Source: a virus
Taxonomy: Duplodnaviria; Caudoviricetes
Strand: one strand, 5' to 3'
Length of the DNA stretch: 64,000 nucleotides
Virus record (IMG/VR): IMGVR_UViG_3300020045_006302
Coordinates: 20,697-84,696 of that record
Below the pieces are notes generated by a model. It saw only the letters and a program-made list of their open reading frames with translations. It was not told the origin of the DNA and did no database searches. Each line of letters begins with the position of its first letter. Position 1 is the first letter of the stretch. Position numbers and translations under genes: made by a program. Below, one piece after another: positions 9,642 through 63,000 of this stretch.

Positions 9642-10943
9642 TTATTTAAATTGTCCAACTCCTAATGGAGTTACTGTTGAAGCAGGCGTATTATGCACAT
9701 TATGGGTACTTGGGCTTATTACTTGTTGTCCTGATTGCTTATTATATCGTTCTCTTAAAGATAATACTTTATTTTCTTTTGCTATGTTAGCGGCTAATTT
9801 AGATATATCATAATTCTTATATCTTAAGTAAGAGGTAAGCAATTGAAATTCTAATGTATCACTTTCTGATTTTACTATATCCTGTGTATTACCTTTTTTA
9901 TCTATAGGTTTATTAAGATAATCAAAAAATGCTTGTCTTTCTGCAACAGGTATAGTAACATTATTTATTTTACCATTATCTACTACTTTCTTAGCTGCTT
10001 GCCAATATTGTTTTTCTTCTTCTTGTTCTTTCAGAAGCTGTTGTTGAAATAAACTATCTTTTTGTTGTTTATCTAAAGACTGTTGTTTATTTAAAAATAA
10101 CAATGCTTCTGCTGTTGAAGTCTTAATTTGTTTTTCTCCTGCTCCTTTAATCAGTTCAAGCATATTATCTACATTAGGTAAACCCTGTTTAGTAAACATG
10201 GTACGAATATAGTTAATTTTTGTGTCATTATCCAAATCATCTACCTTAATTGATGCATAATCAATCGAGGTAGGATTAAAAGTTTCATAAGTACCTCCTG
10301 TAGCAATATGTTTGTAAAAATCAAATGTTTCAGGATTAGAAAGTAGAAAATCTTTTACTGCTGTAGTATTTAATTGTGTTACAGTAGTTTTTACTAATTC
10401 TTGTATCCCTTCTATTGTATCAGGAAATTCTCCTTCTAATTTTATGCCATACTCTTGCTCAAAAGAAGATTTAATATCACTAATAATATCATCTGCTTCT
10501 ACTGTAGTTTCTATTACTTCTCCTAATGCATTGGTTTGTTTTCCTTCTGCATTTACAGGCAATTTATCTTCTGCAATATAAGTCTTAAGTTGTTCTTTAT
10601 TTAGAACTACTTTTCCTTCTGCATTTACTAAATCTCCTGTTTGATTAACTCCTGTTGCTTTTACTAAATCAAAAACTCCATTACGAATTTCCAATTGTTC
10701 TGTTGATAGTTGTTCTATAGGGAAAGATAAAAGAGCAATTGTTTCGTTAACTTCTTTCTCATTTCCCTCTACAGAAACATCAGCAGATGGTGCTTGTGGA
10801 ATTTGAGGTGCTTGTGGGGCTTGTTGTCCTGTTCCATTGTTAGGTGCTAATTCTGCCGGTAAAGTAAAAGGCATTGCATTTCCTTGTGGTTGTTGACCTG
10901 TCATACCTAAATCTGGTGTACCAGTAATGTCATTTACGTCCAT
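9642..10943 (-). CDS. Scaffold-like protein (crAss gene-77-like)
   Basis: Between portal and MCP; low-complexity QAPQ N-terminus; helical C-terminus with AFFDYL motif. Confidence 0.6.
   Translation of the reverse strand: MDVNDITGTPDLGMTGQQPQGNAMPFTLPAELAPNNGTGQQAPQAPQIPQAPSADVSVEGNEKEVNETIALLSFPIEQLSTEQLEIRNGVFDLVKATGVNQTGDLVNAEGKVVLNKEQLKTYIAEDKLPVNAEGKQTNALGEVIETTVEADDIISDIKSSFEQEYGIKLEGEFPDTIEGIQELVKTTVTQLNTTAVKDFLLSNPETFDFYKHIATGGTYETFNPTSIDYASIKVDDLDNDTKINYIRTMFTKQGLPNVDNMLELIKGAGEKQIKTSTAEALLFLNKQQSLDKQQKDSLFQQQLLKEQEEEKQYWQAAKKVVDNGKINNVTIPVAERQAFFDYLNKPIDKKGNTQDIVKSESDTLEFQLLTSYLRYKNYDISKLAANIAKENKVLSLRERYNKQSGQQVISPSTHNVHNTPASTVTPLGVGQFK
10704..10725 (-). repeat. 22-bp dispersed motif copy (TTTCCCTATAGAACAACTATCA)
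   Basis: Read from sequence; inside the scaffold-like gene. Confidence 0.85.
10762..10782 (+). repeat. Degenerate motif copy (TTTCCCTCTACAGAAACATCA)
   Basis: Matches the core, one base shorter; inverted relative to the copy at 10704. Confidence 0.5.
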
Positions 10944-10945
10944 AA

Positions 10946-13270: not shown

Positions 13271-13279
13271 ATATTATTA

Positions 13280-15556: not shown

Positions 15557-16020
15557 TATATTATAGTATATATTTCGTTAATATCTATATATCTTCCTAT
15601 ACCTGCTAATTTAGATGCTTTAGAATGATCTTCCTTACATCCTACAAATAAAGAAGCTGCTATAAACAATTCATGTTCCATAGCAGCATCATATATTAAT
15701 CCCGGATTAGGCATTTGTTCAAAAGATTTTCTTTTATAGGAATAATGTACTTTTACTCTTAATCCTTTCTTTACTTCTCTTTCTATTTTTCTACAAATAG
15801 TATTTATTTTATAATCAAATATTTCTTTTTTAATTATTCCATCTTCTATTTGATTTTGATTACTTAGTATAACTATATCATAATTATTATTATGGAATTT
15901 TTTTATTAATTCTACTATACCGTTAGTTAGTTTCCAATCTTCTGAATGAAGTCCATATAGTCTTCCACTAATAGTTGTTATTAATGTATCATCTAAATTT
16001 ATAAATAATGCTCTATACAT
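15556..16020 (-). CDS. HAD-IIIA (PNKP/GmhB-like) phosphatase fold, catalytic residues degenerate
   Basis: LFINLDDTLI (motif I), ILSNQ (II), MPNPG (III), FVGC..AGI (IV). Confidence 0.7.
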   Translation of the reverse strand: MYRALFINLDDTLITTISGRLYGLHSEDWKLTNGIVELIKKFHNNNYDIVILSNQNQIEDGIIKKEIFDYKINTICRKIEREVKKGLRVKVHYSYKRKSFEQMPNPGLIYDAAMEHELFIAASLFVGCKEDHSKASKLAGIGRYIDINEIYTII

Positions 16021-16045
16021 ATTATTTTATTTAAGTTCTTTAACA

Positions 16046-16067
16046 TTTCCCTATAGAAAGACTATCA
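16046..16067 (+). repeat. 22-bp dispersed motif copy (TTTCCCTATAGAAAGACTATCA)
   Basis: Intergenic, between the nuclease stop and the HAD start. Confidence 0.9.
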
Positions 16068-16074
16068 GATAAAG

Positions 16075-18658: not shown

Positions 18659-18680
18659 TTTCCCTATAGAAAGACCATCC
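18659..18680 (+). repeat. 22-bp dispersed motif copy (TTTCCCTATAGAAAGACCATCC)
   Basis: Intergenic, about 50 nt upstream of the first leftward gene. Confidence 0.9.
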
Positions 18681-19095: not shown

Positions 19096-19117
19096 GGAAT
19101 GTCTTTGTATAGGGAAA
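19096..19117 (-). repeat. 22-bp dispersed motif copy (TTTCCCTATACAAAGACATTCC)
   Basis: Intergenic; inverted relative to the copy at 18659. Confidence 0.85.
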
Positions 19118-19813
19118 GGTTACAAAACTTAATAAACTTTAATTACATAAATTTCATAAAATTACAGTAATAATTTTAAATACTTTTTATTATGATTTTC
19201 AAGAATAAGTAACTAAGTGGTCTCAGCTACTTTATTGGGTACATTAGGATTTATATTATTTACATATAGATTTTCTTATGAGTATGAGTGTAGCTAAACT
19301 TAAATAATTTAAAGAATTTATAAATGTAAATTAAAATTATTTAAATTTTGTATTATTTTAAAGAATAGTATCATAAGTTTTATAAGATTATATTGTAGTA
19401 TTTTTATTAAATTTTATAAAAGATTAAAATTATTGTGTTAAATGTTGGATTAAGAATGATTTATTTTATTGAGAATAGTTAGAGTTTTATTTTATGGATA
19501 TTTTAGAAATTTTATAAGGAGATTTAGTGTGTTTTAAATTGTGTAAATAGTGTGAGGATTATTATAGAGATTATTATAGACAAATTGTTATAGAATTTAT
19601 TATGGCTTGATAAGAAGGATGAATATGGGGAAATACTGCACGATTAAATGATATTAGCCGTAGATATATGGACGTACCCTATCTTTCACCCCCGCATAGT
19701 TTTGGACGGACAGAATACCCCGTACCTTAATCTATATAGAAATTTAGAAATCTAAATTCCAAAAAATAGATTATAAACTTTGTAAATAATTGTTAACTTT
19801 AAATATTTTTATT

Positions 19814-21764: not shown

Positions 21765-22410
21765 AATGTTGTTGTAGATAATTAAATTTTACTAATTTAT
21801 TATGAAAGTAGGAGTGGATAAGTAGACTCAAGATAATAATACGTACGCCAACACGTTATTCCTTATCCTCTACATAATTCTACTCCTACACATTCATACA
21901 CAACTCAAATAATACTACAATTCTCACATTTACACAATTCTCACAATAATTCAAAATTACTTCAAATTCTTCAAATTTTTAATAAAATTAAATCACAACC
22001 TACAACAATGCAATCAAAATACCCTAAAATACTCAATAAACTAAAATAAAAATAATACGAAAATCACTACAATAATACAAATTTACACATAATCCAAAAT
22101 AATACTTAAATTATTAAAAATTCTTTAAGTTTTTAAGGTTTAGCTTCACTCATTTCCAATAAACCTACAAATAAACCAATAATACTAAAATAAAATACAA
22201 TAATGTAAGTAAAATTCAATATTGATTTTAAAGCCCTCTAAAGGCTCAATTTTCCTAAAATATATCAATACTCATACATAAATTTCCAATTCCGCATAAT
22301 CATCCTGTGTCCTTATATTAAGGTATCAGCCGGTATGCGTAAATTGTTAAAAATTTATAACATATTAATAATCAACATATTATAAAATAGTAAATAAAAT
22401 AATAAATAAA
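21765..22410 (+). other. Non-coding G-depleted tract with flanking hairpins
   Basis: No G in 21856-22009 and only two G in 21856-22128; no ORF. Confidence 0.7.
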
Positions 22411-27524: not shown

Positions 27525-27674
27525 ATGAAACCAAGAATTACAACAGGAAAATTAGTAACATCAACTAATCCAATAACAAGAAGTTTATCTTCAAGATTTA
27601 ATATAGAAGTACGATATACTCAATCGTATCGTACAATAGAAAGAACTTATAAAGATGTAGACTTTAAATGTTAA
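27525..27674 (+). CDS. 49-aa basic peptide (below the ORF track cutoff)
   Basis: MKPRITTGKLVTSTNPITRSLSSRFNIEVRYTQSYRTIERTYKDVDFKC, A-rich start context. Confidence 0.4.
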   Translation: MKPRITTGKLVTSTNPITRSLSSRFNIEVRYTQSYRTIERTYKDVDFKC

Positions 27675-27702
27675 ATCCGGCTTAAAACTGGATTTTATTT
27701 TT
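27673..27702 (+). terminator. Rho-independent terminator
   Basis: AAATCCGG-CTTAAAA-CTGGATTT, then TATTTTT. Confidence 0.65.
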
Positions 27703-27838: not shown

Positions 27839-27860
27839 TTTCCCAATAGAAAGATAATCA
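27839..27860 (+). repeat. 22-bp dispersed motif copy (TTTCCCAATAGAAAGATAATCA)
   Basis: Intergenic, 22 nt upstream of the GroES-like ATG. Confidence 0.9.
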
Positions 27861-27882: not shown

Positions 27883-28284
27883 ATGATTAATGTAAATTCA
27901 ATTAATTTATCAGCAGGATTAATACTTGTAGACGTAGATGAAGCATATAAAGTAGTAGAAGCTAAAAAAAGAAATAAAGCAATAAGTAATACTATTACTA
28001 CGGGAGTTGTTATTTCCGATGCTCAAATAGATGAATATGGAAGAAAACAACAAATGCGTACAGGTAAAGTAATGAAAATGTCTAATGACGTAAAAGAAAC
28101 TTTAAAGGTAAGAAAAGATGGACTGGAAGTTCTTGTAGAGGGAAGCGTTATAGTCTTTAATGCTTTAGCAATGGAAACATTTGATATACCTATATATGAA
28201 GAATCCGGAGAAGTAAGAAAAGAATTTAAAAATACTGCAACAATGCATATTAACTCTGTAATTGCAGAATTAAAAAATGAATGA
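27883..28284 (+). CDS. groES: GroES-like co-chaperonin
   Basis: LSAGLILVD / TTGVVISD / RTGKVMKM / VEGSVIVF line up with the GroES strands and mobile loop. Confidence 0.6.
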   Translation: MINVNSINLSAGLILVDVDEAYKVVEAKKRNKAISNTITTGVVISDAQIDEYGRKQQMRTGKVMKMSNDVKETLKVRKDGLEVLVEGSVIVFNALAMETFDIPIYEESGEVRKEFKNTATMHINSVIAELKNE

Positions 28285-30333: not shown

Positions 30334-31677
30334 ATGCAGTTAAATGATGAACAGCAACAAGCAGCAGAAACATTACAAACATGGCTTAATAAATCTTCTG
30401 ATAAAAAAGATTTAATTAGAACTTTAAGTGGATTTGCTGGTACAGGTAAATCCACAGTTGCTAATGAAATACTAAGAGGACAAAGAGATGTTGTAGTTTC
30501 TGCTCCTACTCATAAAGCACGTAAAGTTATTGAGAATAAAACCCATAAACCAAGTGAAACAGTACAAGCTTTATTAGGATTAAGACCTGATGTAGAATTA
30601 GATAATTTTAATCCTAATAAACCTGTATTTAATTTATTAGCAGAAGAAAAAATAAAGTATTTTAAAACAATAGTAATTGATGAAGGGTCTATGGTTAATA
30701 ATAGTGCCCGAATAATGATTGAAGAAAAAGCACAAAAGTATGGTACAAAAATACTATATATAGGAGATGCATTACAACTTGCACCAGTAGGAGAAAATAT
30801 ATCTACAGTATTTACTAAATATCCTTTAACATCTTTAAATACAATTGTAAGACAAGAAGATAGTAATCCTAATACAAAATTAATTGAATTATCAAGAAAT
30901 GATGTATTATATGGAACTTCTACATTTTTACCTTATTTAAATAGTATTAAACAAGATATGCATAATGGAGAAGGATTTAAACTTCTACCAATGGAAGGAT
31001 TTTATAAAGGAATATTAGAACATTATTTTAATTCTGAATATGCTGTAGATTATGATTATGCTAAAACTATTTGTTATTCTAACGATACAGTTAAGAAAAT
31101 AAATAAGTATATAAGAAATCAAGTAAATAGAAATACTGAATTAGTAGCAAAAGGAGATGTATTAATGGGATATAATACTGTAAGTTTACAGATAATGGAT
31201 GCTCCTTATTATAGGCCTTTGATTAGTAATTCAGAAGATTATATTGTACAAAGTTCAGAATTAATAGAATTACCAATAGAAGGAACAGTATATACTGGCT
31301 ATAGAGTTAAATTACAATTAGTAGATGAATATCTATTTATTCTACATCCGTTATCTTATAAAGATTTTTATGATGAAATTTATAGAAGAATGGATGAAGC
31401 TAAATTATTTAAAAAATGGCCTGCATATTATAGATTTAAAAATCAGATACTTGTAATGGATGATTTTTACTATCCTGATAATAAAACATTATTAGTAAAA
31501 AAAGATATTGACTATGGATATTCTCTTACAGTACACAAGGCACAAGGCTCTACATATAAAAATGTAGGTATAGTACTTAAAGATATAGAAAGTTGTTATA
31601 AGATAGCTGATAGACGTAGATTACGATATGTAGCATTATCTCGTACAAGTAAAAATAACTTAATTTATGCCAAGTAA
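30334..31677 (+). CDS. SF1B helicase, Dda/RecD-like
   Basis: GFAGTGKS, APTHKA, IDEGSM, GDALQL, TVHKAQGST, RYVALSR. Confidence 0.9.
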   Translation: MQLNDEQQQAAETLQTWLNKSSDKKDLIRTLSGFAGTGKSTVANEILRGQRDVVVSAPTHKARKVIENKTHKPSETVQALLGLRPDVELDNFNPNKPVFNLLAEEKIKYFKTIVIDEGSMVNNSARIMIEEKAQKYGTKILYIGDALQLAPVGENISTVFTKYPLTSLNTIVRQEDSNPNTKLIELSRNDVLYGTSTFLPYLNSIKQDMHNGEGFKLLPMEGFYKGILEHYFNSEYAVDYDYAKTICYSNDTVKKINKYIRNQVNRNTELVAKGDVLMGYNTVSLQIMDAPYYRPLISNSEDYIVQSSELIELPIEGTVYTGYRVKLQLVDEYLFILHPLSYKDFYDEIYRRMDEAKLFKKWPAYYRFKNQILVMDDFYYPDNKTLLVKKDIDYGYSLTVHKAQGSTYKNVGIVLKDIESCYKIADRRRLRYVALSRTSKNNLIYAK

Positions 31678-34950: not shown

Positions 34951-35406
34951 ATGATAAATGAAAAAGAATTAATAAAAAGAAACTTAAAAATACCCCTTCC
35001 CTCTACAAGAACTATCAGAGATTTACCTGACGGAATTACAGCTATTCCTGTATATAAAAAATCTTATGTACTTTTAGATAAAGTAATAGAAATAAATTCT
35101 ACTACATTACAATTACAAAGAGTAATAGAATTAGATAAAGAATATCCTAAAGCAATTATAGGATTTCATCCTCCTTTATTTAAAGATTTTATAAATAAAG
35201 ACAATACTATAAATACTCATGTTAATGTAGGGGAAACTGTAGTATTAGGATTAAAATTTAAAAATGATAAAAATCCACCAAGAATTGTAAAAGAATTATA
35301 TTTTACATCATTAAATAGTATTACTGTAATTATTGCTAAATTAGATAATGAAGATTATTATCCTTCATACTTTTTAGAAAAATACATAGAACCTGATGCA
35401 AGTTAA
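34951..35406 (+). CDS. Hypothetical protein
   Basis: Packed ORF. Confidence 0.5.
   Translation: MINEKELIKRNLKIPLPSTRTIRDLPDGITAIPVYKKSYVLLDKVIEINSTTLQLQRVIELDKEYPKAIIGFHPPLFKDFINKDNTINTHVNVGETVVLGLKFKNDKNPPRIVKELYFTSLNSITVIIAKLDNEDYYPSYFLEKYIEPDAS
34996..35017 (+). repeat. 22-bp dispersed motif copy (CTTCCCTCTACAAGAACTATCA)
   Basis: Coding; inverted relative to the copy at 34797. Confidence 0.85.
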
Positions 35407-40200: not shown

Positions 40201-40449
40201 ATGAATACTATAATAGGAGTAATATCAAACATAGTGGATGTTTCTGTAAAGGGAAAGGATAAAAAACTAATCGTAGATTTATCTATAAACAGAGAAGTAT
40301 TATTTATAACATTTAAACACAATCTACAAATGTTTACAAATTATAAACAAGGAGATAGAGTTAAAATATCTTTTACTTATAATGGAAGTATTTATAAAGG
40401 AAAATATATTAATAATATTAATGGACATTCAATAAGCCTTGAGCAATAA
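40201..40449 (+). CDS. DUF3127-like OB-fold protein
   Basis: GDRVKISFTYNGSIYKGKYINNI resembles the DUF3127 GD.V.VSF...G..W.G.YFN motif. Confidence 0.55.
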   Translation: MNTIIGVISNIVDVSVKGKDKKLIVDLSINREVLFITFKHNLQMFTNYKQGDRVKISFTYNGSIYKGKYINNINGHSISLEQ

Positions 40450-41557
40450 AAAGAACGTTTTTCCTGATTTAACAAAGAAATACATTTTAGATAGAATTTC
40501 ACAAGAAAGACTAATGGAATTTTATACAGAAATACCTGTAATTGATAAACATTTTACAGGTAATTCTTTTTTATCTCCATTAAGACCGGATAATAATCCT
40601 ACTGCAAATTATTATTATACAGATACTAATAAACTAAAATTAAGAGATTATGGAATTAGTTTTAATGGTGATGTTTTTGATGTAATATCATATTTAACTA
40701 AAATAAGTATTAAATCTTCACAAGGATTTGTATTATTACTTCATAAAATAGCTTCAGATTTTCAAATACATAAATATGAAAGTAAGGAAGAAAGAGATAT
40801 ACTTAATTTAAATGTAAAAAATTATGTAGAAATTAAATCACTAAAAGGATATAAAGTAGTACCAAGAAAATTTAATAAAGTAGATTATAATTACTGGACT
40901 TTACAATATGGTATTACTCAAGACATGCTTAGAATAGCTAAAATAATACCTATAGATGAATTATATATTACAGATTTTAATGGATTTTTTTATAGAAGAT
41001 ATGTATATAGTAATAATAATCCCGGATATGCTTATTACGGAGGAACAGAAAATGGAGTAAATATATGGAAATGTTATTTTCCTTTTTCTACAGATAAAAA
41101 AAAGAAATTTACTACCAATAAATCCTTTATACAAGGAGAACATATGTTAGTTCCTGCAGAAATATGTGTATTAACAAAATCTTATAAAGATGTACTTTGT
41201 TATAAATCATTTGGAATACAGGCAGTCGCAGTAGCGTCAGAAAGTAGTTTACCAGATAAAGATTTTATATTTAAATTAAAAAGTTATTACAATGTAGTTA
41301 TCTCTAATATGGATTATGATACTGCCGGTATAAAACTTTCTAACAAACTAAAAAAAATTTATAATATACAGCCAGTAATGTTTACACAAGGTAAATACGG
41401 TAGTATTAATTATGGAGTAAAAGATTTTAGTGATTTTATAAAACTATATGGTAGAGAAAAAGCATTACAATTGTTAATAATGACAATAGGTAATTATAGA
41501 GAAGACTTAGATAATATAAATATAATTAATTATAATATTTTAAAAGATATTAAATGA
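40439..41557 (+). CDS. DNA primase (crAss-type, TOPRIM)
   Basis: SPLRPDNNPT, LRDYG, TKSYKDV, A..SES, MDYDTAG, KDFSDF. Confidence 0.85.
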   Translation: MSNKKNVFPDLTKKYILDRISQERLMEFYTEIPVIDKHFTGNSFLSPLRPDNNPTANYYYTDTNKLKLRDYGISFNGDVFDVISYLTKISIKSSQGFVLLLHKIASDFQIHKYESKEERDILNLNVKNYVEIKSLKGYKVVPRKFNKVDYNYWTLQYGITQDMLRIAKIIPIDELYITDFNGFFYRRYVYSNNNPGYAYYGGTENGVNIWKCYFPFSTDKKKKFTTNKSFIQGEHMLVPAEICVLTKSYKDVLCYKSFGIQAVAVASESSLPDKDFIFKLKSYYNVVISNMDYDTAGIKLSNKLKKIYNIQPVMFTQGKYGSINYGVKDFSDFIKLYGREKALQLLIMTIGNYREDLDNINIINYNILKDIK

Positions 41558-41919: not shown

Positions 41920-42348
41920 ATGAAAGCAATTAAATTAAAGATATTAAGGAGCAAAGAAGAAGCATTCATGTATGCACTTCTTCCCTGTACAGAATCATCC
42001 ATTGAAGCTACGAGAGTAAATAAAGGCTTAGATAAATCTATATTAGATTTTGCAAGAGAACAAAATATAATAACTTTTGACCAAGATATAGAAGGAATAT
42101 ATTATTTAGGAGAATTAGATAAATTTTCTTCATATGGACAATTAGTATATAAATTTCCATTAACTAAACGTCAGATAGTAGATAAAAAGAAAGAACAATT
42201 TAGAGATTATGGAATGGATATAGAAAAACAAAAAGAATATATGCATTTAGTAATTTTATGTTCATCTGCGGCAGTAAGTTGGAAAACAGCAATAAAAGCA
42301 TCAGGAAGTAAATTTGGAGTAATATGTAAAGTAAAACTACATGGATAA
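41920..42348 (+). CDS. Hypothetical protein
   Basis: ATG at 41920 (the track uses TTG at 41914). Confidence 0.5.
   Translation: MKAIKLKILRSKEEAFMYALLPCTESSIEATRVNKGLDKSILDFAREQNIITFDQDIEGIYYLGELDKFSSYGQLVYKFPLTKRQIVDKKKEQFRDYGMDIEKQKEYMHLVILCSSAAVSWKTAIKASGSKFGVICKVKLHG
41980..42000 (+). repeat. Degenerate motif copy (CTTCCCTGTACAGAATCATCC)
   Basis: Matches the core; one base shorter. Confidence 0.4.
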
Positions 42349-43057
42349 AATAGTTTATGTTACTATAGAGGAAAAAATAGATAAAATAGATTTAAAAAAT
42401 AATTACTATTATTATGATAAAATACATCAAGAATCTATAGCAGTAATTAATAATACAAAATTACCTAATAAATATCTAATAAATAAAGAAGGAAATACAA
42501 ATAAATTAAATATTAAATTTCCTTATGGTATTGGTATATTTGTAAAAAGTAGATTACAAGTAGTAGAAGGTTATATAGATAAAAACAATAAAGAATATAA
42601 TAGAAAAGTAGGAGAAGAAAGAGTAACTTATTCCGATTTTCCATTAGTATATAAAATTATTAATACAATAACAAAAGAAGTATTAGAAGTAATACCAACA
42701 AATAAAGAAGAATTTGATTATAAACCTTTAATCAATGAATTGAAAGACTTTCTAAAGGGAAAGGATGATGTAGAAATAGTATCATTAGTAGGTAATCAAT
42801 TAAAAATAAAAGTGAAAATGAATTTAGTTGCAAAATATGCAGGAAGAGTTATAGAATTAAGAAAAGACTTAGAAATACATAAAAAAGGAGAAAGACTTAC
42901 TATAGATAAAATAGAATTAGATACTATTGAAAAAGGTAAAGGAATTAAAATATATTTTGATTTAGGAGAAGAATCTTCTGTAGAAGAAATTAATGATGCT
43001 CCTGGAAATTGGAAATATGAAACATGGTTAAGTAAAAACATTAAAATAATTTATTAA
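42341..43057 (+). CDS. Hypothetical protein
   Basis: 238-aa packed ORF. Confidence 0.5.
   Translation: MDKIVYVTIEEKIDKIDLKNNYYYYDKIHQESIAVINNTKLPNKYLINKEGNTNKLNIKFPYGIGIFVKSRLQVVEGYIDKNNKEYNRKVGEERVTYSDFPLVYKIINTITKEVLEVIPTNKEEFDYKPLINELKDFLKGKDDVEIVSLVGNQLKIKVKMNLVAKYAGRVIELRKDLEIHKKGERLTIDKIELDTIEKGKGIKIYFDLGEESSVEEINDAPGNWKYETWLSKNIKIIY
42741..42762 (-). repeat. 22-bp dispersed motif copy (TTTCCCTTTAGAAAGTCTTTCA)
   Basis: Coding; two deviations from the consensus. Confidence 0.7.
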
Positions 43058-43058: not shown

Positions 43059-43286
43059 ATGACTGCACAAGAAGCAAGAGAAATAACAGAAGAAAATTCA
43101 AAATATATAGAAGATAAATTAAAAACTATATTTGAAAAAATAAAAGAAAAATGTATAGAAGGTAAGGATAGCATTTCTATAGATATACCTGAAAGTAATT
43201 ATAACGTATATACAAAAAAATTAAGAGATTTGGATTATGATGTAACAAGAAATCAAAATACAACTATATACATAATATCTTGGTAA
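43059..43286 (+). CDS. Small hypothetical protein
   Basis: MTAQEAREIT..L..LDYDV..IISW pattern common in phages. Confidence 0.5.
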   Translation: MTAQEAREITEENSKYIEDKLKTIFEKIKEKCIEGKDSISIDIPESNYNVYTKKLRDLDYDVTRNQNTTIYIISW

Positions 43287-43288
43287 AT

Positions 43289-44545
43289 ATGGATACATTA
43301 TATAAATTATCTAACGGAAAAATATTACAATGGTCTGCAAATGTTGTAGATAATATATCTTCAGCTTCTATAGTAATTAAACATGGAGAAATGAATGGTA
43401 AATTACAAGATGATGTAAGACATGGTATCGTAGGTAAAAATAAAAATAAAAAAAATGAAACTAGTATTTTAGTACAAGCAAGTAATGAAATAGAAAGTTT
43501 ATATCAAGATAAAAGAAAAAGAGGATATAAATCATTAAAAGATTTAGAAATATTAACTTTTTCTGTAGATGATAGTATTACCTATTTAGAGCAATTATTA
43601 AAATCTAAATTATCAGAAGATTTAACAACTTTACAAGGTTATATAAAACCTATGAAATGTCAACAGTATTATAGAAGTAAACCTAATTGGATTTCTCCTG
43701 AAGGAATAGAATATAAAGATAGAAAATATTATTATCTTAAAAATCCTAATGTAGAAAAAGAACCTAAATCAATTATAATAGATTTTCCTGCTATAATTCA
43801 ACCTAAAATTAATGGAGTACGATGTACACCGCAAGTAGTAGGAAATGAATTAAAGTTATTAAGTAAAGAAGGATTAGAATATAAAATACCTCATATTACT
43901 AATGCATTAAATGTAATATTACCTATACTTATAGAAAATAATTACATATTAGATGGAGAACTTTATATACCTGGGGAAGCTTTACAAAATATTACATCAG
44001 CTGTAAAAAAAGAAAATTTATATACATCTTTAATAGAATTTCATGTATTTGATTTAGCTATTCCTAATATGATTAATAAGGATAGATTAGAATTACTTAA
44101 AAATCTTTTATTTGAAGTAAATGATATTTGTATTAAATTAGTACCTTCTATACAAGTTACTAATGATGCTACAGTACAATTACTTACGGATACTTTTATT
44201 AAAGAAGGATATGAAGGAAGTATAATAAGAAATCCTAAAGGATTATATAATTTCGGAGGTAGACCTAAAAATATTGTTAAACTTAAAAGATTAATAGATG
44301 AAGAATTTGAAATTATAGGTATAGTTTCTCAATCAGTTGATGCATCATTAGGAATGTTTGCTTGTAAAACAAAAGATGGTAAAGAATTTACAGCAAATCC
44401 TACTATGAGTGAAAATGATAAAAGAGCATTATTTATAATACCGGAAGAATATATAGGTAAAATGTTAACTTGTTCTTTTTATGAATATACGGAAGATGGT
44501 AAACCTTTTCATATAGTAGATACAGTAATTAGAGATTATGAATAA
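43289..44545 (+). CDS. ATP-dependent DNA ligase
   Basis: KPMKCQ; motif I QPKINGVR; LDGELY; FHVFDL; EGYEGSIIRN; VKLK; OB domain; ATG at 43289. Confidence 0.9.
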   Translation: MDTLYKLSNGKILQWSANVVDNISSASIVIKHGEMNGKLQDDVRHGIVGKNKNKKNETSILVQASNEIESLYQDKRKRGYKSLKDLEILTFSVDDSITYLEQLLKSKLSEDLTTLQGYIKPMKCQQYYRSKPNWISPEGIEYKDRKYYYLKNPNVEKEPKSIIIDFPAIIQPKINGVRCTPQVVGNELKLLSKEGLEYKIPHITNALNVILPILIENNYILDGELYIPGEALQNITSAVKKENLYTSLIEFHVFDLAIPNMINKDRLELLKNLLFEVNDICIKLVPSIQVTNDATVQLLTDTFIKEGYEGSIIRNPKGLYNFGGRPKNIVKLKRLIDEEFEIIGIVSQSVDASLGMFACKTKDGKEFTANPTMSENDKRALFIIPEEYIGKMLTCSFYEYTEDGKPFHIVDTVIRDYE

Positions 44546-44553: not shown

Positions 44554-44997
44554 ATGAGTACTTATGCATATAAAATATTAAAAGATATTGTAGATTTTAA
44601 AATTACAGAAGAAGAAGGAGAAAAATTATTATTAGAATTTTTTAATAATTATTGGGAACCTTCTGAAAATAGAAGATTACCAAGAGATTTAGAATTACCT
44701 AAAGATAAAATATATTTATTAGAATTGTATGGAGATAGATGTATATTTTGTAATATAATAATGATATCTGATACAGGTTTTCAAACTAAATTAACATCAG
44801 AAGATAATTTAACAATAGAACATATTTTACCAAGAAGTAAAGGAGGACCTAATCATTTAGATAATAAATGTTTATCTTGTGCAAGTTGTAATAGTAGAAA
44901 ACAAAGTAATATAATACCTGCAATAAATAGAATACAAAAAGTATATAATAAAAATACACCATTTGAATATATATTAAAAAATCTAAATAAGAAATAA
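44554..44997 (+). CDS. HNH endonuclease
   Basis: CIFC..TIEHILPRSKGG.N..DN..LSCASCNSRK. Confidence 0.88.
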   Translation: MSTYAYKILKDIVDFKITEEEGEKLLLEFFNNYWEPSENRRLPRDLELPKDKIYLLELYGDRCIFCNIIMISDTGFQTKLTSEDNLTIEHILPRSKGGPNHLDNKCLSCASCNSRKQSNIIPAINRIQKVYNKNTPFEYILKNLNKK

Positions 44998-47126: not shown

Positions 47127-47471
47127 ATGGCTAAAAAACAAATTTCAGCAAAACAAGTAGGAAAGAATATCATAGTAATGATAGATGGAGTAAAACATTC
47201 TAAAGCAATTGATACTCCGGAAGAAAGACAATTAATATTAGAAGAAGTAAAATCTTATAATGAAAAAAATAATGCTACAAAATTAAAAGCAATTATTAAA
47301 TCATTATCTAAAGATATACCGGTTAAAAAAGAAACTAAAGAAAAAACAACTAAAAAAATTGAATTAGTTAAAGAAAAACCAGTAGAAAAAGAAGTTGTAC
47401 AAAAAGTACAAGAAGAAAAAACATATACTCCTCCTGCACCTACATATAGAAGAAGAGGTGGAGAATATTAA
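47127..47471 (+). CDS. Basic hypothetical protein (possible rIIB N-terminal stub)
   Basis: Directly follows the rIIA-like gene; lacks an rIIB core. Confidence 0.4.
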   Translation: MAKKQISAKQVGKNIIVMIDGVKHSKAIDTPEERQLILEEVKSYNEKNNATKLKAIIKSLSKDIPVKKETKEKTTKKIELVKEKPVEKEVVQKVQEEKTYTPPAPTYRRRGGEY

Positions 47472-48089: not shown

Positions 48090-48110
48090 TTTCCCAATAG
48101 AAAGATATCA
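48090..48110 (+). repeat. Dispersed motif copy (TTTCCCAATAGAAAGATATCA)
   Basis: Fills the intergenic gap 48088-48116. Confidence 0.88.
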
Positions 48111-48460: not shown

Positions 48461-48482
48461 TGATTATCTTTCTATAGGGAAG
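48461..48482 (-). repeat. 22-bp dispersed motif copy (CTTCCCTATAGAAAGATAATCA)
   Basis: Intergenic; inverted relative to the copy at 48090. Confidence 0.9.
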
Positions 48483-54476: not shown

Positions 54477-54752
54477 ATGGTACCATTTTTAATAATAGTA
54501 ATTTTAATTTTAATATGGTATAATATTATAACGGTATTAAGTTATAAAAATACAATTTATATATTAAAAAGAGAAGAAAACAAAGAAGATATAAAACCAT
54601 ATAATAGATATTTAAATACTATATCAGAATTACATATTACTAATCCTATTTTAGAAAAAGAAATTATATATGTAAAAGAAAATAATAGTTATTATATTTT
54701 TGATAGACTATGGAAAAAACTTGAAAATTATGAGAGAAAAAATAATAGCTGA
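54477..54752 (+). CDS. Small membrane-anchored protein
   Basis: N-terminal hydrophobic helix. Confidence 0.45.
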   Translation: MVPFLIIVILILIWYNIITVLSYKNTIYILKREENKEDIKPYNRYLNTISELHITNPILEKEIIYVKENNSYYIFDRLWKKLENYERKNNS

Positions 54753-55272
54753 AATAAATTCAGTATTAGAAAATTCTACATCAATGTCAGGAGTAAATTT
54801 ATTAGATAGATTTACTCCTATTGATTTAGGAAATTTTGCTACAGTAATATATTCTTGTTTACCTTTATATACAGATGAAAATATAGAAACTATTGTTTAT
54901 AATATTATTCATGTATTTGAAGATATAGAAAGAGGTATAAAATTTATATATAAAAATATAGCTTTATATTTACCGGATTATGTAAAACGAGAATATACAT
55001 CAGAAGATTTAACTGCATTAGTGTTTTGGATTAATTTATTAAATAAAATTAAATTTCAAACTGATTTAGTAGATGAAGAAGTAAATTATAAAGATTACTT
55101 ATTATCACATTTAATATCAGAAATAGATTTGAGAAATGAAATTCAAGAAGTAAAAGCAGATGGAGAAACATTATCAATGGGATTAAATTACCTTAGAGTA
55201 GATAGAGAAAGTGATTTATTGCTTCCCTCTACAAAGACTATCAGTGAATATGGAAAATATATTAAAAAATGA
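54730..55272 (+). CDS. Hypothetical protein
   Basis: ATG at 54730 preferred to the track start. Confidence 0.5.
   Translation: MREKIIAEINSVLENSTSMSGVNLLDRFTPIDLGNFATVIYSCLPLYTDENIETIVYNIIHVFEDIERGIKFIYKNIALYLPDYVKREYTSEDLTALVFWINLLNKIKFQTDLVDEEVNYKDYLLSHLISEIDLRNEIQEVKADGETLSMGLNYLRVDRESDLLLPSTKTISEYGKYIKK
55222..55243 (+). repeat. 22-bp dispersed motif copy (CTTCCCTCTACAAAGACTATCA)
   Basis: Coding. Confidence 0.88.
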
Positions 55273-55742
55273 GAATAACATTAGATATTGTAGTAGTTAA
55301 TTTAATTATAGTAGTATTGACTATCTTTCTATTGGGAAGATATAATAAAAATAAAATAAGTAAATTAAAGGAAGAAAATGCAAAATTAAATCATAAAATA
55401 AAATCTTTAACAAATGAAATTAAAATAAATATAGAAATAAATTTTATTATAGAATGTATATTAAATAAAGGATTAGTATTAGTAACAGAAGATAAAAGAT
55501 TGAGATTTAGTACTAATTATCAAATATTTAAAACTAAAGTTACAGTATTTATTCCAGTAAAAGGAGATAAAGGAGATGTAGTAGAAGGAAAATTATGTTA
55601 TATTTATAAAGAAAATGATATAAGATATTATATACCTCAATATAAATTTATAACTATATTAAAATCATATCACAAAAATAATACTTTAGATTATTTTAAA
55701 GCTTTATTAAAAAAAGAAGCAATAATAACAGATAATAAATAA
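55269..55742 (+). CDS. Membrane-anchored hypothetical protein
   Basis: N-terminal TM helix plus coil. Confidence 0.45.
   Translation: MRITLDIVVVNLIIVVLTIFLLGRYNKNKISKLKEENAKLNHKIKSLTNEIKINIEINFIIECILNKGLVLVTEDKRLRFSTNYQIFKTKVTVFIPVKGDKGDVVEGKLCYIYKENDIRYYIPQYKFITILKSYHKNNTLDYFKALLKKEAIITDNK
55318..55339 (-). repeat. 22-bp dispersed motif copy (CTTCCCAATAGAAAGATAGTCA)
   Basis: Coding; inverted relative to the copy at 55222. Confidence 0.88.
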
Positions 55743-55991: not shown

Positions 55992-56021
55992 ATATAAATA
56001 TTAACTTAAATTTTAAATAAA

Positions 56022-56291: not shown

Positions 56292-56424
56292 CTATTATGG
56301 AAGAAAGTTTAACTTATAATCAAAAGATAGAAATACTTAGATTAGCAACTATTAATAGTGTAGATAATAATGATACTATTAAAAAATATAAAGAATTAAT
56401 AAAAGTAATTAAAGAATATTAAAT

Positions 56425-56955
56425 ATGAGCCAAAACACAATGGGTTATAGTGGTACTAAAGCAACTAAAAAACCAGTAGAAATAGAATTTTTTACATTTG
56501 AAGAAGTAGTAAATATAGGAATAGTAAATAATCCTGAAAGTTTACATGATGGTATTCCTTGGGTAATAGCAATTAATGGACATAATTTAACACATGAAAA
56601 TAATGAATGTTATATTATACCTACATTAGAAGGTAGTTATAATTTTACTCCTAATGATGTATTAATTATAGGAGTTAAAGGAGAAATATATCCATGTAAA
56701 AAAGATATATTTAATTTAACTTATAATGTTAAACAAGAAACTACATTCTTACAAAGATTGATAATTGAAGAAGAGGAATTAAATACTAAATTAATAGGAT
56801 TAGGAAAATTCTTAGATAAACCTAATGAAGAATTAAATAGTATGGTAGGAAATTATCAAAAGGTATTATTACAAATTCAATTATGTTCTATGGATACTTA
56901 TCATAAAGTATTACAAGAAAGAATAAAAGATTTATCAAGTAATAAAGCTTCTTAA
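56425..56955 (+). CDS. PTLEG/PGDYG-like domain fused to a crAss001_48-like coiled-coil
   Basis: KKPVEI..IPTLEG..IIGVKGEIYPCKKDIF..TY, then TFLQRLIIEEEELNTKL..L..FL..Q..SMDTY..VL.ERI. Confidence 0.65.
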   Translation: MSQNTMGYSGTKATKKPVEIEFFTFEEVVNIGIVNNPESLHDGIPWVIAINGHNLTHENNECYIIPTLEGSYNFTPNDVLIIGVKGEIYPCKKDIFNLTYNVKQETTFLQRLIIEEEELNTKLIGLGKFLDKPNEELNSMVGNYQKVLLQIQLCSMDTYHKVLQERIKDLSSNKAS

Positions 56956-56978
56956 TATATAATATTATATTAAAATAG

Positions 56979-57011
56979 AAAACCCTATAGAAATTAATCT
57001 ATAGGGTTTTT
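56979..57011. terminator. Bidirectional Rho-independent terminator at the convergence point
   Basis: AAAACCCTATAG-AAATTAAT-CTATAGGGTTTTT between converging operons. Confidence 0.88.
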
Positions 57012-57019
57012 ACATTTTA

Positions 57020-57059
57020 AAGCTATTAAAAATTTAGCAATTCAAGCTATTAAAAATTT
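57020..57059 (+). repeat. 16-bp direct repeat AAGCTATTAAAAATTT x2, 24-bp period
   Basis: Copies at 57020-35 and 57044-59, abutting the RNAP stop. Confidence 0.75.
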
Positions 57060-57061
57060 GA

Positions 57062-60000
57062 CTATTCAAAGGTCTGTACCGAACTGTTTATAAACCTATA
57101 ACCTTGGTTCAGGAATGGTACTATACGACCTGTAGAATGGCTTAACTTGCTATCTCCGGCATATTCTCCCGTTTTGTAATTATCGTCGCCTGTAACGGCT
57201 GTAATGACGTCGCCAGTCCACTTAATTGTGTTATCTACTAAAGATAATGCTGGAATTACATCTTTAAATATTTTTCTTCCTTCTGCAGGATTTACATATA
57301 ATAGCATATCTGTTCTTAGTCTTAATCCTTGATTAAATAATACATTGTAAGCATAATTTTCTTCATCATCATCACCTTTTAATACTGCTCCTAATGCAAG
57401 TAGTAATAATTGTGCATTAATAACTAAAGTAATTTCCATTGATAATCTTCTTAAGTTTGCAGCATCTACTTGACTTAAATTTAGATTATTGAAATCTGTA
57501 TTTTTAAATATAGTACCAAATGAATTATTTTTTATTACTGATTTTAATATACTTCCATATAAATTTAATGTATTTTTATCTAATTTAGTATTTTCTGCTA
57601 AACTTCTATATCTACCTTTTACTTGTAAATCTAATAAATGGTCTGTACGTTCTTTACCAAACCTTACAATTATAGCATCTACTAACCAACTTCTAAACTG
57701 TATTACTGCTCTACCTAAAATATTTCTTTTTATTCTCGGAGAAGAAGATGGGTCATAATTACCATGTATTCTTTTAGCTATAGCTTGGTCTACTTTAATA
57801 CGAGTTTTTGTTATTAATTCTTTTGGTTCTTCTCCGTATTTTTCTGTATTCCAATTTCCTTCACTATCAAAACCTTCATATAAATTAATTTCTCCATCTT
57901 TAGTAGTAGTTTTAGTATTAAGCATTATTGCTATCATTACAGGAGCCTGATTTACATATTCAGTTGACCTATATATTTGATAAGGATTTAATGCTTGTGC
58001 TTTTTTCTTAAGCATACTTGTATTACTATTTACATTAAATTCTTCTGTAGCATCTTTAAGTGTATTCCAATTGTACATTAAATTTGTTATTTTATTTGCA
58101 TCTCCTAATTGTAAATTATTAAAAGAAACATTTTTAGCAATACTTGCTGATACTAATTTATATGCCGTTAACATTTGATTAGTACTAAATAACTCATTTC
58201 CTGCTCCTTCTACAATATTAGATATAAATCCAAATCCTGCATTAGATACACCTCCTAAAAAGTTCCAACCCATTCCTAATAGTTGAAAATATTTTAATAC
58301 ATTATCTCCATATTTAGAATATACTCTATTACTTCCTAATTGAGATTTTTGTACTTGTAAAGAATTTTTAGTAGTATCATATTCTATTTGAGATATTTCT
58401 TTATTAGCTAATGAAGTTTCTAATTGTTCTATTACGGTATCAATTTCTTTTATTTTATTTTTTTCTTCATTAGTATAAGTTTTACTTCCTATTCCTTCCT
58501 CTTCTTTACCACTATTATAATAATTTAAGTCCATAAAATGTTGAAGCATTTTCTTCATATTTATAAAACTTTCTTCAATAGGTTTTTGATGTATTTCATT
58601 ATTACCTGAAATTGTAATAGCTGTTCCATCTCCACGTCTATTTACTTCTTTCATTGTATCAATAATAGATTTAGCCATTTTTACATTACCTTCTATTTCT
58701 GATTTATGTTTATAAGCAAGTGAAGTAATAGAAAATAATTTAAGTATTTTAGGTAAATCAGTTGCATTATCTTTTGTAAGTTCTGCAATTTTATCTAATC
58801 TCCATTCTTCTAACATTTCTACTGGAGCAGGTTCTCTATTCTCTATTTGATATTTAGCAGCTTGTAATGCTATATAATCATTTATTTCTTTATAATGGTT
58901 TTTAATCATTCCTACTCTCATTTGTTTAAGAGGTTTTTGAGTAAGAGGGTCTATATCAACTACAGCGTTACTTCCATAATTAGATTGTGTAGATTTTACT
59001 AATGCATCATTTATTACTCCAAATCCGGCTTTTAATCCTCCATCAAAGAATTGATTTATTACTGATTTCTCTAATTCAGGTAATCCATTATATGCTAATT
59101 GTTTTTGTTGTTCTTCTGATAAGAAACTTGTTAATTGTTTTAATGAATTATTAAATGTATTATAGAATTGTATAAAATCTGTATCAGCTTCTATTCTTTC
59201 AAATCTTTTATCTTTTTTATCTTCATTACCAATAACTTCATAATAATTTTGAGAATTAAAGTTATCTAATTGTGATAAATAAGAAGGAGAACCTTCTTTA
59301 ATAAAAGTTGCTAATTTATATGGACTATTTTGATTTATCCATCTTGAATATAAAGAACTTGCATTTACATCATTAGATATATCTGCTGCTTTTGCTAATC
59401 CAAATCTTCCTATTAAATATTCTATTTGTGCATCTAATGCATTTTTATAATTATCTATTTTTTTCTCTTGTTTAAGTATATAATCATTATAGATAAAATC
59501 TCCTAATTGTTCTTTTAATTTACTTCTATTATTTTCAACAGCTTTAGTTATTTTTCCATTCTCAGGAAAATAATCTTGTAGATTTATATCTAAAGTATTT
59601 TTCTTAAGCCAATTAATATATGCTACGAAATTTATAGGATTTCTTTCTTCGTTTAAGTTACTTAATGCTCTATTCCTTTCCCTATAGAAAGAACTTCCAA
59701 ATGGTTTAATTATGTGATTATTAAATCTTCCTTTTTCATCTGTCTGTAGAAATATACTAAATGGATTTTTATTATCTATTACTTTAAGTTTTTCAATAAC
59801 TTTATCTGTAACTCCATCTATATTCTTTAATATTTTTCTACTTTCGTCTTCTGTTTTAATATTAGCTTCTTTTAAATCTATCATTAATGAACTTAATAAT
59901 TCATTTCCTGATGAACTTATATCTGTAAATAAAGAAGCTAATTCACTTTCATCTTTATATTTATCAAATATATCAGATATTGTTATATCTTTACCAGTTT

Positions 60001-63000
60001 TTTGTTTTACATATTCTTGTAGATATTTATTTTTAATTTGTAATAATTTCTGTTCTGCTGAATATGCTTTACTTTCTAAATCTCCATACATATTATTTAA
60101 TAATTCAGAACCAAAATGTTTATCTTGAAATACTCTTTGTTTAGCTACTTTCCAAAATTGTACTGTACTATCTATAAAATTAATATCCTCAATACTTAAT
60201 GTACGTTTAAACATTTCTTGTATTTTAGCTAATTCCTGTTCTCCGTATGCATGTAAATCTACTAACTTAGGTAAATCATTTACTTTACGTAATTTTTCTC
60301 TTTCTACTACTAAGTCATTTTCTAAAGTTGTAATTTTAGCGAAATCTTCTTTTGCTTTTGCATTATTAAGATTTTTTCTAATCTCACGTATTCTATAATT
60401 AATTACATCTAAGTAATTTTTATAATAACCCTTTTCTTGTTCTGTAGCAGAAGATGCATCTACATTTATACTATTTAATACTTCTAAATCTGAATAAGTT
60501 TTATATTGTACATCTACAAAGTTATTAATTTGTGTAGCAATTAAATTGGCTAAATTTTTATTAATAAATGTTACAATTTCTTTTGCATTTTCTTTTTCTA
60601 CATAATCATCATTTTCATCTACTAATCTAAATTTGTTATCAATATATTCTTTAGTTCTTACGTACTTAGGAACTGTTACTTCTTTTTGTAAATTTCTATT
60701 TACTTTTTCAAATAACTGGATAGTTTCATGTAAAACTCCTTCTAAATTACTATCTGAAATTACTCCTAATGATACTAATAAATCTTTAATTCTTTTAATA
60801 AATCTTGACCATAATGAAGTATTTTCATTTTTAAGATTATTAAGTATATTTTGAAATTCTTTATTAGTAATAGCATTAGCTACAAATTCATCTAATGATG
60901 TTACATTATACATTAATCTTTCAGTAGCATTTAATGCTTTACCTGTAGACATTTTATTTAGTAACTTATCATAAGCTTCTTGTCCATATTTAGATATTAA
61001 AGCTTTTTTAGTATCTTCTCTTAAAGCTTCTAATCTTTTAGTATGTACTGTATTCTTTTTTAATTCTTGTCTTAGTACTCCATGTATCATTTCTTCTAAT
61101 AATACACGTTGCATTTCATTTTCTCCTTTTATATTATTAGGATTAATTTCTATTCTTACAGGACGTCCTTTTAATTTAGAAGTATAAGTTGCACCTTTAG
61201 CATTTAGATTATTATTTAAATATATAGAAGTTTCTGCTAAATATGGAACTATAGGCATTAATTTATTTGCCATATATGATAATATACTATCACTACTATC
61301 TGAAATATTAGTTAGTATATTAGTATATTTACTTTCATTACTACTATTATTATCTGTTAATGAATATTTATCCTCTAAAGAATTACTTTCATTATATAAT
61401 CTATCTCCTATTGCATTTGTATCTAAATTTAAAAATTGATATACTTCATTTATTGTATTCGGTATATAAGTACTAACTGACTGTTCTTGTATAGGGAAAG
61501 CTTGAGAAGCTTGAGGTAAATAATTATAATTATCTGCTGTATTAGCATATATTACAGTTCTTGCTGCAAATTCTGCATTTAAATCATATTCATTCATTAC
61601 ATCATTACCTAATGTATCAATCTGATGATAAACTCCATTATAATCTTTATATACATCATAACCCTTTCTACTATTCACAGAAGGTATTGTAATTATATTA
61701 GGAAAATATGTAGTATCTACTCCTTCATTAAATATTAATACTCCATCTTCAATCCTTTCTATAGATTCCATAAATACACTTTTATAATACTTTTCAGGAT
61801 TATGTTGTATATGTTGAGTTAAGAAATTATTAAAATGTTGATTTACATTTACACTTTTTCCTTCTATATAAGAATTTTTAATACTTTCATAATATCCTAT
61901 ATCTTTTAAATATGTAACAGGTATAAATTTAATTAATTGTGTACCTTTTTGTACTCCTCCTGTTATACCTTGATGTATAATTAAATTATCAATAACATCT
62001 TTAGTAGTCGTAGATTTTCCATTATATTCTCCTATATCTTTAGGATTTACAATCATATCTATAATAGTATTAATAATTACTTCTTCTTCTAATTCTTGAG
62101 TTGAAGCATTAATAAAACTAATTGCAGTAGGAACTTTACCTGAAACATCTATAGGAGCATTAAATTCTCCTACTTGTATTCTATCTATAAAAGGATTTAA
62201 TAAATTAGGTTTTTTCTTCATTTCACTTATTATAGTTCCAAGTGATTTATGAGTTTCTGTATCTAATAATAAATCTTCTTTAGCTTCAGTTATAGTATTA
62301 TATTTATTAAATAATTGATAAGTATTAGAAGATATATATCCTTTATATTCTAAGAATGTTTTTTGTAATTCTTCTGCTCTTGTAGATATTAAACTTGATG
62401 ATGTAGTTAATGATACTATATTATTTAATGTAGTATTTAAAAATCCTTTATTATAAGGAAAATAATTACTCCATAATTCTGTATTAAATAAATTAGCATA
62501 AACAGCTGCATATCCATTAATAGTTGCAGGTTTAATCATAACATCTTTATATAAATAATACCCATCACGTTTCTTTTCTTCTAAAAAGTCTTTCTGTAAT
62601 TCACTATCTAATTCTAAATATTCTTTATCATTATTATAATAATAATAATCTCCTACAATTTTACTTATGTTACTTATATTACTATTTTGTCCTAATCTTA
62701 ATAATGCATTTGCTTTTTCTATAGAATAAAAACTATTCTTACCAATACCTGCACTATCTACATTTATTGCACTTTGTACAGTTTTAAGTTGTTTACCTTT
62801 TTTAGTTAAATCTTTAAATAATTTCAAAGCTGCTTGTTGGTAATCTCCCTCTAATATATTATCTGCAATATACCTATGCATATCTTTTAATTCTGTATTT
62901 TGTAATAGAATTTCTTCTTCTATCATTAAATCAAAATCTCCATTAAGTAATGCATCTTGTTCTTCTTTATTATCTCTTGTTTTTATATATTCCTTAATTA

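Follow-up and report, generated by a model that had tools for sequence, protein, structure and literature searches.

Crass-like phages are among the most abundant human gut viruses and are widespread in the environment, and their replication and genome control are largely unknown. On IncQ plasmids, which replicate by strand displacement and independently of DnaB, the ssiA and ssiB sites are hairpin-forming signals, one on each strand, and are present a single time per replicon. In the crAss-like phage phi14:2, the middle and late promoters are tripartite, sigma-70-like, read by the host RNA polymerase (RNAP), and nearly always intergenic and in sense orientation (bioRxiv 10.1101/2020.03.07.982082). 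The localized nick motifs described in other phages were found on one strand only in all known cases, and their function is still unknown (PMC3517423). Here, a polar element of about 31 bases, repeated on both strands, is described from a window of 64,000 nucleotides (nt), the window being the whole stretch of DNA that was analysed (bases 20697-84696 of the viral IMG/VR record IMGVR_UViG_3300020045_006302). The source is a single contig of 84,696 bp whose ends overlap by 121 bp, so that the assembly is circular. The element is tentatively read as a fixed start point of strand synthesis.

A sequence-only reading of the window had proposed a 22-bp asymmetric motif in at least 13 copies. Scans with an IUPAC consensus and with a position weight matrix (PWM) derived from the copies showed that its 14 strong coordinates were all real, but that the list was incomplete: the window held 18 copies, and strong ones at 28124(-) and 40235(-), in the strand labels of that reading, had been overlooked. 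Among its weaker copies, those at 10762 (22.5 bits) and 41980 (19.1 bits) were retained, while 28547 was not (best score below 9 bits). The element also proved longer than proposed, with conservation from about -17 to +12 (~31 bp), and the motif had been written on its less informative strand; the reverse complement, which reveals an architecture like that of a start site, was taken here as the reference orientation, with +1 set at the first G of GGG. The consensus matched the window 10 times exactly and 15 times with at most two mismatches, where dinucleotide shuffles expect 0.00 and 0.14, respectively. Genome-wide, 23 sites scored at least 19 bits, the best score below them being 12 bits, and Markov-shuffled genomes gave 0 to 4 matches at 10 bits or more. 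The copies of the window are listed below (window coordinates, strand, position of the +1 G, setting relative to open reading frames (ORFs), and PWM score).

10702-10732, plus: copy, +1 G at 10720; antisense in ORF 9642-10943 (minus), convergent with 10767; 30.3 bits
10755-10785, minus: copy, +1 G at 10767; sense in ORF 9642-10943 (minus), relatives having a pair at the same portal/scaffold junction; 22.5 bits
16039-16069, minus: copy, +1 G at 16051; intergenic, sense, unpaired; 38.6 bits
18652-18682, minus: copy, +1 G at 18664; intergenic, heading the leftward (structural) arm, divergent with 19112; 36.1 bits
19094-19124, plus: copy, +1 G at 19112; intergenic, heading the rightward (early) arm; 41.2 bits
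27832-27862, minus: copy, +1 G at 27844; intergenic, antisense, divergent with 28140, the syntenic pair of relative G005 being at 47470 (minus) and 47570 (plus); 34.3 bits
28122-28152, plus: copy overlooked in the sequence-only reading, +1 G at 28140; sense in ORF 27883-28284 (plus); 37.5 bits
34795-34825, plus: copy, +1 G at 34813; in polA, 124 nt before the stop, sense, convergent with 35001; 38.5 bits
34989-35019, minus: copy, +1 G at 35001; 64 nt past the polA stop, antisense in ORF 34951-35406; 37.3 bits
40233-40263, plus: copy overlooked in the sequence-only reading, +1 G at 40251; upstream of the primase gene, sense, unpaired; 36.3 bits
41973-42003, minus: weak copy, +1 G at 41985; antisense in ORF 41920-42348; 19.1 bits
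42739-42769, plus: copy, +1 G at 42757; sense in ORF 42341-43057; 34.0 bits
48083-48113, minus: copy, +1 G at 48095; intergenic, antisense, divergent with 48477; 25.6 bits
48459-48489, plus: copy, +1 G at 48477; intergenic, sense; 40.5 bits
55215-55245, minus: copy, +1 G at 55227; antisense, in the last 46 nt of ORF 54730-55272, divergent with 55334; 37.5 bits
55316-55346, plus: copy, +1 G at 55334; sense, 65 nt into ORF 55269-55742; 27.6 bits
59670-59700, minus: copy, +1 G at 59682; middle of the virion RNAP gene, sense; 30.9 bits
61476-61506, plus: copy, +1 G at 61494; middle of the virion RNAP gene, antisense; 36.2 bits

Six copies were intergenic (16051, 18664, 19112, 27844, 48095 and 48477), as the sequence-only reading had correctly counted, and 17 of the 23 lay within ORFs, with all three codon phases and both senses represented. 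Two were located inside the virion RNAP gene and two inside a giant ORF (at least 2,795 codons) just outside the window. This minus-strand frame occupies genome positions 1-8386, upstream of the first base of the window, runs off the contig start across the 121-bp overlap, stands in tandem with the virion RNAP gene and holds a divergent pair of copies of its own. When synonymous codons were shuffled with proteins and codon usage held (200 shuffles), a check that had been proposed with the motif, only about 0.9 coding copies were retained. Since such shuffling erases nearly all coding copies, the constraint acts on the DNA and not on the protein, in agreement with the earlier claim. Where a sense copy would create an in-frame TAG stop, the TATA step was altered to TAGA, TAAA or TATT.

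In the 20 copies that were aligned, T at -4, A at -3 and GGGA at +1 to +4 were present without exception, and A at +5 in 19 of them. A pyrimidine tract spanned -10 to -5, preceded by a separate upstream block (TGR..G) at -16 to -11 that differed between lineages, and weaker conservation extended to about +12, which brings the whole element to ~31 bases. No conserved hairpin was found, a possible CTTTC/GAAAG stem being without covariation (C or G at -5, always G at +3), and neither this genome nor crAss002 displayed an AT-rich or GC-rich flanking feature beyond about ±40 bp. Virion-RNAP promoters of phage N4 consist of a 5-7 bp hairpin with a 3-nt loop, maintained by compensatory mutations; a promoter of this kind was rejected, as there was neither covariation nor a stem common to the dialects.

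Sites were distributed almost equally between the two strands, 11 pointing rightward (plus strand) and 12 leftward (minus strand), with one site per ~7 kb on each strand. Spacing, alternation and pairing were compared in three genomes:

This genome: 23 sites; coefficient of variation (CV) of per-strand spacing 0.38 and 0.33 (p<=0.0007); 20 of 23 steps alternating in strand (p=0.0006); 12 sites with an opposite partner within 500 bp (p=0.006)
G005: 24 sites; CV of per-strand spacing 0.17 and 0.24; 20 of 24 steps alternating; 16 sites with an opposite partner within 500 bp (p=0.003)
crAss002: 29 sites; CV of per-strand spacing 0.40 and 0.45; 24 of 29 steps alternating; 6 sites with an opposite partner within 500 bp (not significant)

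Both divergent and convergent pairs occurred, divergent ones predominating in this genome, and opposite-strand partners were in places only 39-47 bp apart. Only three sites of the window were unpaired, all of them sense. Overall, 14 copies were sense and 9 antisense relative to genes (14:10 in G005 and 15:14 in crAss002), so that orientation was independent of transcription direction, as had been claimed. Pairs of copies also sat inside single long ORFs, both here and in G005. The lack of a sense bias and the pairs within single giant ORFs argue against messenger RNA promoters or terminators. On the same ground of pairs inside single ORFs, two more specific schemes were rejected: one in which the reverse copy is a terminator and the forward copy a promoter (such pairs being found here and in G005), and one in which inverted pairs form RNA stems or RNase III sites, which moreover would not require one shared word.

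The genome itself is a very distant one. Its large terminase was ~30% identical at best to that of any deposited crAss-like phage, megablast against deposited phages found no close relative, and a metagenome scan with the DUF932 protein recovered only relatives at 40% identity or less. The exact word of this genome was absent from the relatives found through the terminase, and gave scattered single matches only in IMG/VR; in 185,579 bacterial species genomes, matches were likewise scattered and single, none being clustered as a signal. One Bdellovibrionales metagenome-assembled genome held three exact copies within paralogous genes, which were judged unrelated.

Conservation in related Crassvirales, which had been proposed as a check, was found for positions and orientations, while the word itself differed in each lineage. 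Relatives L042-45, L045, G005, L083 and crAss002 kept the TA/G-run core with a changed upstream block, each having its own word. The divergent pair at the junction of the two gene arms, ~3.3 kb upstream of the terminase gene, was kept in six relatives (L041, L042, L043, L045, L083 and G005), and the portal/scaffold-junction pair in four. Syntenic sites were found in relatives whose proteins were 48-59% identical. The closest comparison was provided by G005, a complete genome of 83,238 bp with a polymerase 48% identical and 24 sites of a different word. Along its early and middle arm, the sites came in the same order as in this genome: a divergent pair ahead of the replication genes, then two convergent copies flanking the polA stop, the first 122 nt short of it and the second 78 nt past it (124 and 64 nt here), and a lone site 229 nt upstream of the primase ORF, syntenic with 40251. 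G005 also had a pair inside the giant ORF equivalent to the virion RNAP gene. The polA copy sits in a variable linker, in a reading frame that differs between the two phages. Known polymerase start sites likewise evolve with a retained core and a changing upstream block.

Beyond this clade, crAss002 (Intestiviridae), which is cultured on Bacteroides xylanisolvens, carried 29 sites, whose word has TAY followed by GGGGGAA at its end. They alternated in strand at even distances and were not closely paired, and no copy stood upstream of the first genes of either arm. Strong dialects of their own were also found in cr3_1 (Intestiviridae) and cr127_1 (Crevaviridae). Among the genomes examined, cr127_1 (L235, NC_055886.1) had the signal in its most sharply defined form, with eight near-identical copies of ~40 bp between 1776 and 42233 in 50 kb, including three pairs 170-560 bp apart. 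Nothing comparable was found in phi14:2 and crAss001 (Steigviridae), nor in the 50 kb examined of each of cr124_1, cr130_1 and ProJPt-Bp1 (Suoliviridae).

Matches to PHROG and Pfam displayed a crAss-like gene layout. The leftward arm encoded the major capsid, portal and large terminase, and the rightward arm a Dda-like helicase (30334-31677), a family A polymerase, an SNF2 helicase, RecT, a DnaG-type primase, an ATP-dependent ligase, an rIIA-like protein and nucleotide-metabolism genes. The giant virion RNAP gene, of the two-barrel type, points leftward, and no other ORF of this genome had a size suited to a T7-like RNAP. A Pfam search for T7-like RNAP (PF00940) gave no match in the five carrier genomes defined below, nor in the control genomes. 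Two genes of the rightward arm bear on the signal:

40439-41557, plus: DnaG/Toprim-type primase gene (Pfam Toprim_2; PHROG DNA primase, 1.6e-34), a putative reader of the signal
43280-44545, plus: ATP-dependent DNA ligase gene, whose presence co-occurs with the signal in 10 genomes, as an association only

Gene content was compared between five carriers (this genome, G005, crAss002, cr3_1 and cr127_1) and five non-carriers (phi14:2, crAss001, cr124_1, cr130_1 and ProJPt-Bp1). The ATP-dependent ligase was present in all five carriers and in no non-carrier. Conversely, a DnaB_C match was absent from all carriers, this genome included, and present in three of the five non-carriers, crAss001 having an annotated replicative helicase instead. 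The giant RNAP gene was annotated in all three cultured reference phages and present in each of the five reference genomes (cultured or annotated) inspected for it; being common to carriers and non-carriers alike, it does not track the signal. The virion RNAP, which the sequence-only reading had listed among possible binding proteins, occurred in every Crassvirales genome looked at, five without the signal included, and is therefore a poor candidate for a specific reader. HNH domains were found in this genome, crAss002 and cr3_1, with no match in G005 and cr127_1, and a conserved HNH nickase was rejected as the reader since it was not common to all carriers.

The anatomy, distribution, conservation and gene co-occurrence of the signal are established, whereas its chemistry (priming, reader and direction) is at the stage of a proposal. 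We lean, tentatively, to the reading that the motif is the lineage version of a strand-specific signal carried by several groups of Crassvirales, and that it marks fixed start points of strand synthesis tied to the replication module. A phage enzyme would bind the lineage-specific block at -17 to -11 together with the pyrimidine tract, the DNA would open at the TA step, and synthesis would begin at the G run and run away from the recognised block. Because each strand has sites spaced by ~7 kb whatever the gene direction, the products would tile both strands, unlike a set of messenger RNAs; they may be primers or nick-primed strands in a DnaB-less replisome, to be sealed later by the phage ligase. 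It is the best explanation for a process that has to serve both strands, that is tied to the replication module and in which a start-site-like element is read in one polarity only. The conservation of position and orientation under a changing sequence also speaks for it, as does the presence of the DnaG-type primase gene. The features that would mark priming signals were found together, with strand-specific sites on both strands, a primase of the phage's own and no DnaB_C match.

Several points weigh against strand-synthesis start sites. The association with the ligase and with the missing DnaB may reflect a single evolutionary split, with Intestiviridae, Crevaviridae and this lineage on one side and Steigviridae and Suoliviridae on the other, which amounts to one or two independent contrasts. 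The ligase fits nick sites of the T5 type equally well. DnaG-type primases read 3-5 nt and a short flank, not ~30 bp, and signal-less crAss phages also have primases of this type. A start-site model assigns no clear role to the fact that 12 sites are tightly paired (partner at 500 bp or less), and close pairing in this clade is unexplained by any model considered here. Lastly, each of the two gene arms in this clade begins with a copy in the correct orientation, which is what promoters would show.

A broader and more doubtful proposal is that crAss-like phages with a DnaB-less, ligase-bearing module copy both strands in fixed segments of ~7 kb, from hard-wired polar signals of ~30 bp that run through essential genes and would co-evolve with their reader. 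Candidates for this reader would be the DnaG-like primase, a helicase partner and, in the role of a primase, the giant RNAP. To our knowledge, no virus or cell has such a fixed-site, two-strand replication grammar.

Among the alternatives, phage-specific promoters are rather unlikely and survive best. They would consist of a T7-like single block read by the virion RNAP or another factor, the antisense copies serving regulatory or insulating transcription or helping their divergent partner through supercoiling. The core does resemble promoters of the T7/T3 group (CTATAGGGA here, CTAAAGG in L083), the correctly oriented copies at the head of both arms belong to the junction pair kept in six relatives, the three unpaired sites of the window are all sense, and sense copies stand at the head of functional modules, the next start codon following 31-190 nt downstream. 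Host-type promoters were not enriched (112 sigma-70-like matches against 134 expected; 5 against 4 for the Bacteroidota -33/-7 type; 10 sense and 10 antisense for the -7 element), and the signal was missing from phi14:2, whose middle and late promoters are of the host type (bioRxiv 10.1101/2020.03.07.982082). Against phage promoters stand the absence of a sense bias in all three genomes, the conserved antisense copies inside essential giant genes, a spacing no less even on the antisense than on the sense strand, the lack of a copy upstream of the first genes in either arm of crAss002, and the occurrence of the virion RNAP in signal-less phages. Promoters of the host RNAP itself (sigma-70 type or Bacteroidota -33/-7) were rejected, the motif being without two such blocks and such promoters not being enriched.

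An improbable, but serious, competitor is a set of nickase sites, at which a phage enzyme would introduce localized single-strand interruptions into the DNA that is packaged; T5, phiKMV-like phages and tf have such sites, which here would occupy both strands. Like the nick motifs of tf/LUZ24 and phiKMV (PMC3517423), the word is lineage-specific and co-evolving and occupies similar map positions in relatives; gene boundaries are ignored, and every carrier encodes a ligase. Yet the described motifs lie on one strand only (PMC3517423), against 11 and 12 sites per strand here, and measure 9-19 nt instead of ~31. Opposite-strand partners 39-47 bp apart would weaken the duplex, and no nuclease was common to the carriers, HNH domains being found in three of the five only.

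The sequence-only reading had itself proposed binding sites of a protein that organises the genome, as an operator network, by looping, or as a packaging or ejection signal, which now seems quite unlikely. An asymmetric site of ~31 bp would suit a multi-domain protein, close inverted pairs (significant here and in G005) could serve dimers or loops, and the regular spacing could reflect a structural role. However, the HU-like (17699), Myb-like (25840) and NUMOD1-like (41554) proteins suggested as readers had no Pfam or PHROG match at the thresholds used, no DNA-binding domain being found in these ORFs. Copies in the middle of genes of 2,200-2,800 codons, equally on both strands and evenly spaced, fit an operator network badly. 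In crAss002 the sites keep their spacing and alternation but are not paired; architectural sites seldom combine a strict strand polarity with an invariant G run and a TA step; and packaging and ejection, which have a fixed polarity, would need a single orientation.

Still less probable are polar signals of the Chi kind, which would tame a helicase-nuclease so that a double-strand end meets an oriented site within a few kilobases. Equal orientations and even spacing would minimise the longest unprotected stretch, and the carriers encode a RecD/Dda-like helicase, a PD-(D/E)XK exonuclease and RecT, several of them also Gam. Chi, however, is a word of 5-8 nt set by the host enzyme, whereas the present element has ~31 bp and differs between close relatives, and its dialect was not clustered in any of the 185,579 bacterial species genomes. 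Ends of small mobile elements (inverted repeats resembling miniature inverted-repeat transposable elements), at which many inverted pairs 47-450 bp apart might hint, and artefacts of chance or codon usage have a negligible probability and are excluded as the source of the motif: the shuffles rule out the latter, and pairs enclose 47-2,100 bp of unrelated sequence, including parts of essential genes, occur in both geometries and have syntenic counterparts in relatives whose proteins are 48-59% identical and whose word differs.

Other features of these genomes were observed alongside the signal. The plus strand of the window was free of C over 19373-19580 (208 nt), a tract starting 260 nt downstream of the rightward copy 19112, and free of G over 21856-22009 (154 nt). 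A terminator-like hairpin with a T run was located at 27673-27695, at the end of the block of small early genes and just before the pair 27844/28140. An ORF of 147 codons (44554-44997), which follows the ligase gene immediately, encoded an HNH nuclease domain (E 2.8e-10), and the last ORF of the rightward arm (56425-56955) matched a Pfam crAss001_48-related protein (3e-14), a family named for a crAss001 gene beside RNAP genes. The 9-mer CTCCTAATG occurred 12 times in the genome, on both strands, against 0.67 expected and with flanks that were not conserved (for example at window positions 9659, 10520, 11818, 52748, 56648, 57388 and 60763), and the relative L083 was likewise enriched for it. 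An analogous short word of crAss001, TCCAGAAG, was found 38 times against 9 expected. Such words could represent a further short DNA signal or result from codon-pair effects. The crAss001 genome (L233/L234, MH675552.1) also held 36 runs of A (or T) at least 10 long, against 0.3 expected.

Full-text literature searches returned no paper describing such a signal in crAss-like phages, in line with the sequence-only reading. What is new here is a very distant AT-rich lineage with the signal, the tight pairing of its sites and the start-site reading of their architecture, together with the absence of the signal in Steigviridae and Suoliviridae and its link to a ligase-bearing, DnaB-less replication module. 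Since a phage this distant (terminase ~30%) keeps a signal of the kind found in crAss002 and other gut lineages, which overrides coding in essential genes, the signal is ancient and under strong selection. It suggests that crAss-like phages copy or handle their DNA with a step not yet described, and its association with one type of replication module offers a concrete, testable handle on function. Lineage-specific words could also be used to mark and classify crAss-like contigs and, if the sites were start points or nicks, would bear on read-end patterns and assembly breaks in viromes.

Compared with known systems, the element shares with the promoters of the T7 group (T7, T3, SP6 and K11; 23 bp, -17 to +6) an asymmetric single block with a lineage-specific upstream region and an AT-rich TA step before a G-run start, as well as many near-identical copies across a phage genome. 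Those promoters, however, are without exception oriented along the genes and depend on an RNAP of the T7 type, whereas the present sites are oriented about 50:50, evenly spaced on both strands and found inside giant genes. The phi14:2 promoters are also a repeated motif obtained from genome scans, and the only crAss-like promoter motif found in the literature search, but the phi14:2 genome is without the signal found here. Chi sites and DNA uptake sequences are likewise over-represented polar words in both orientations with kilobase spacing, but they are shorter (5-12 nt), host-read and shared by all host DNA, and thus not specific to a phage lineage. The nick motifs of T5/BF23, phiKMV-like phages and tf (PMC3517423) are similarly dispersed, lineage-specific words that co-evolve with their reader and keep similar map positions independently of genes; they differ in being restricted to a single strand, in measuring 7-19 nt and in not being evenly spaced. 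The ssiA/ssiB sites and the strong T7 primase sites with a 3' flank (PMC12839067) are, like the proposed start sites, strand-specific start signals in which the template is recognised 3' of the start. Here, ~23 sites of ~31 bp without a conserved hairpin take the place of a hairpin occurring once per replicon, as for ssiA/ssiB, or of a 5-nt core, as for the T7 primase sites.

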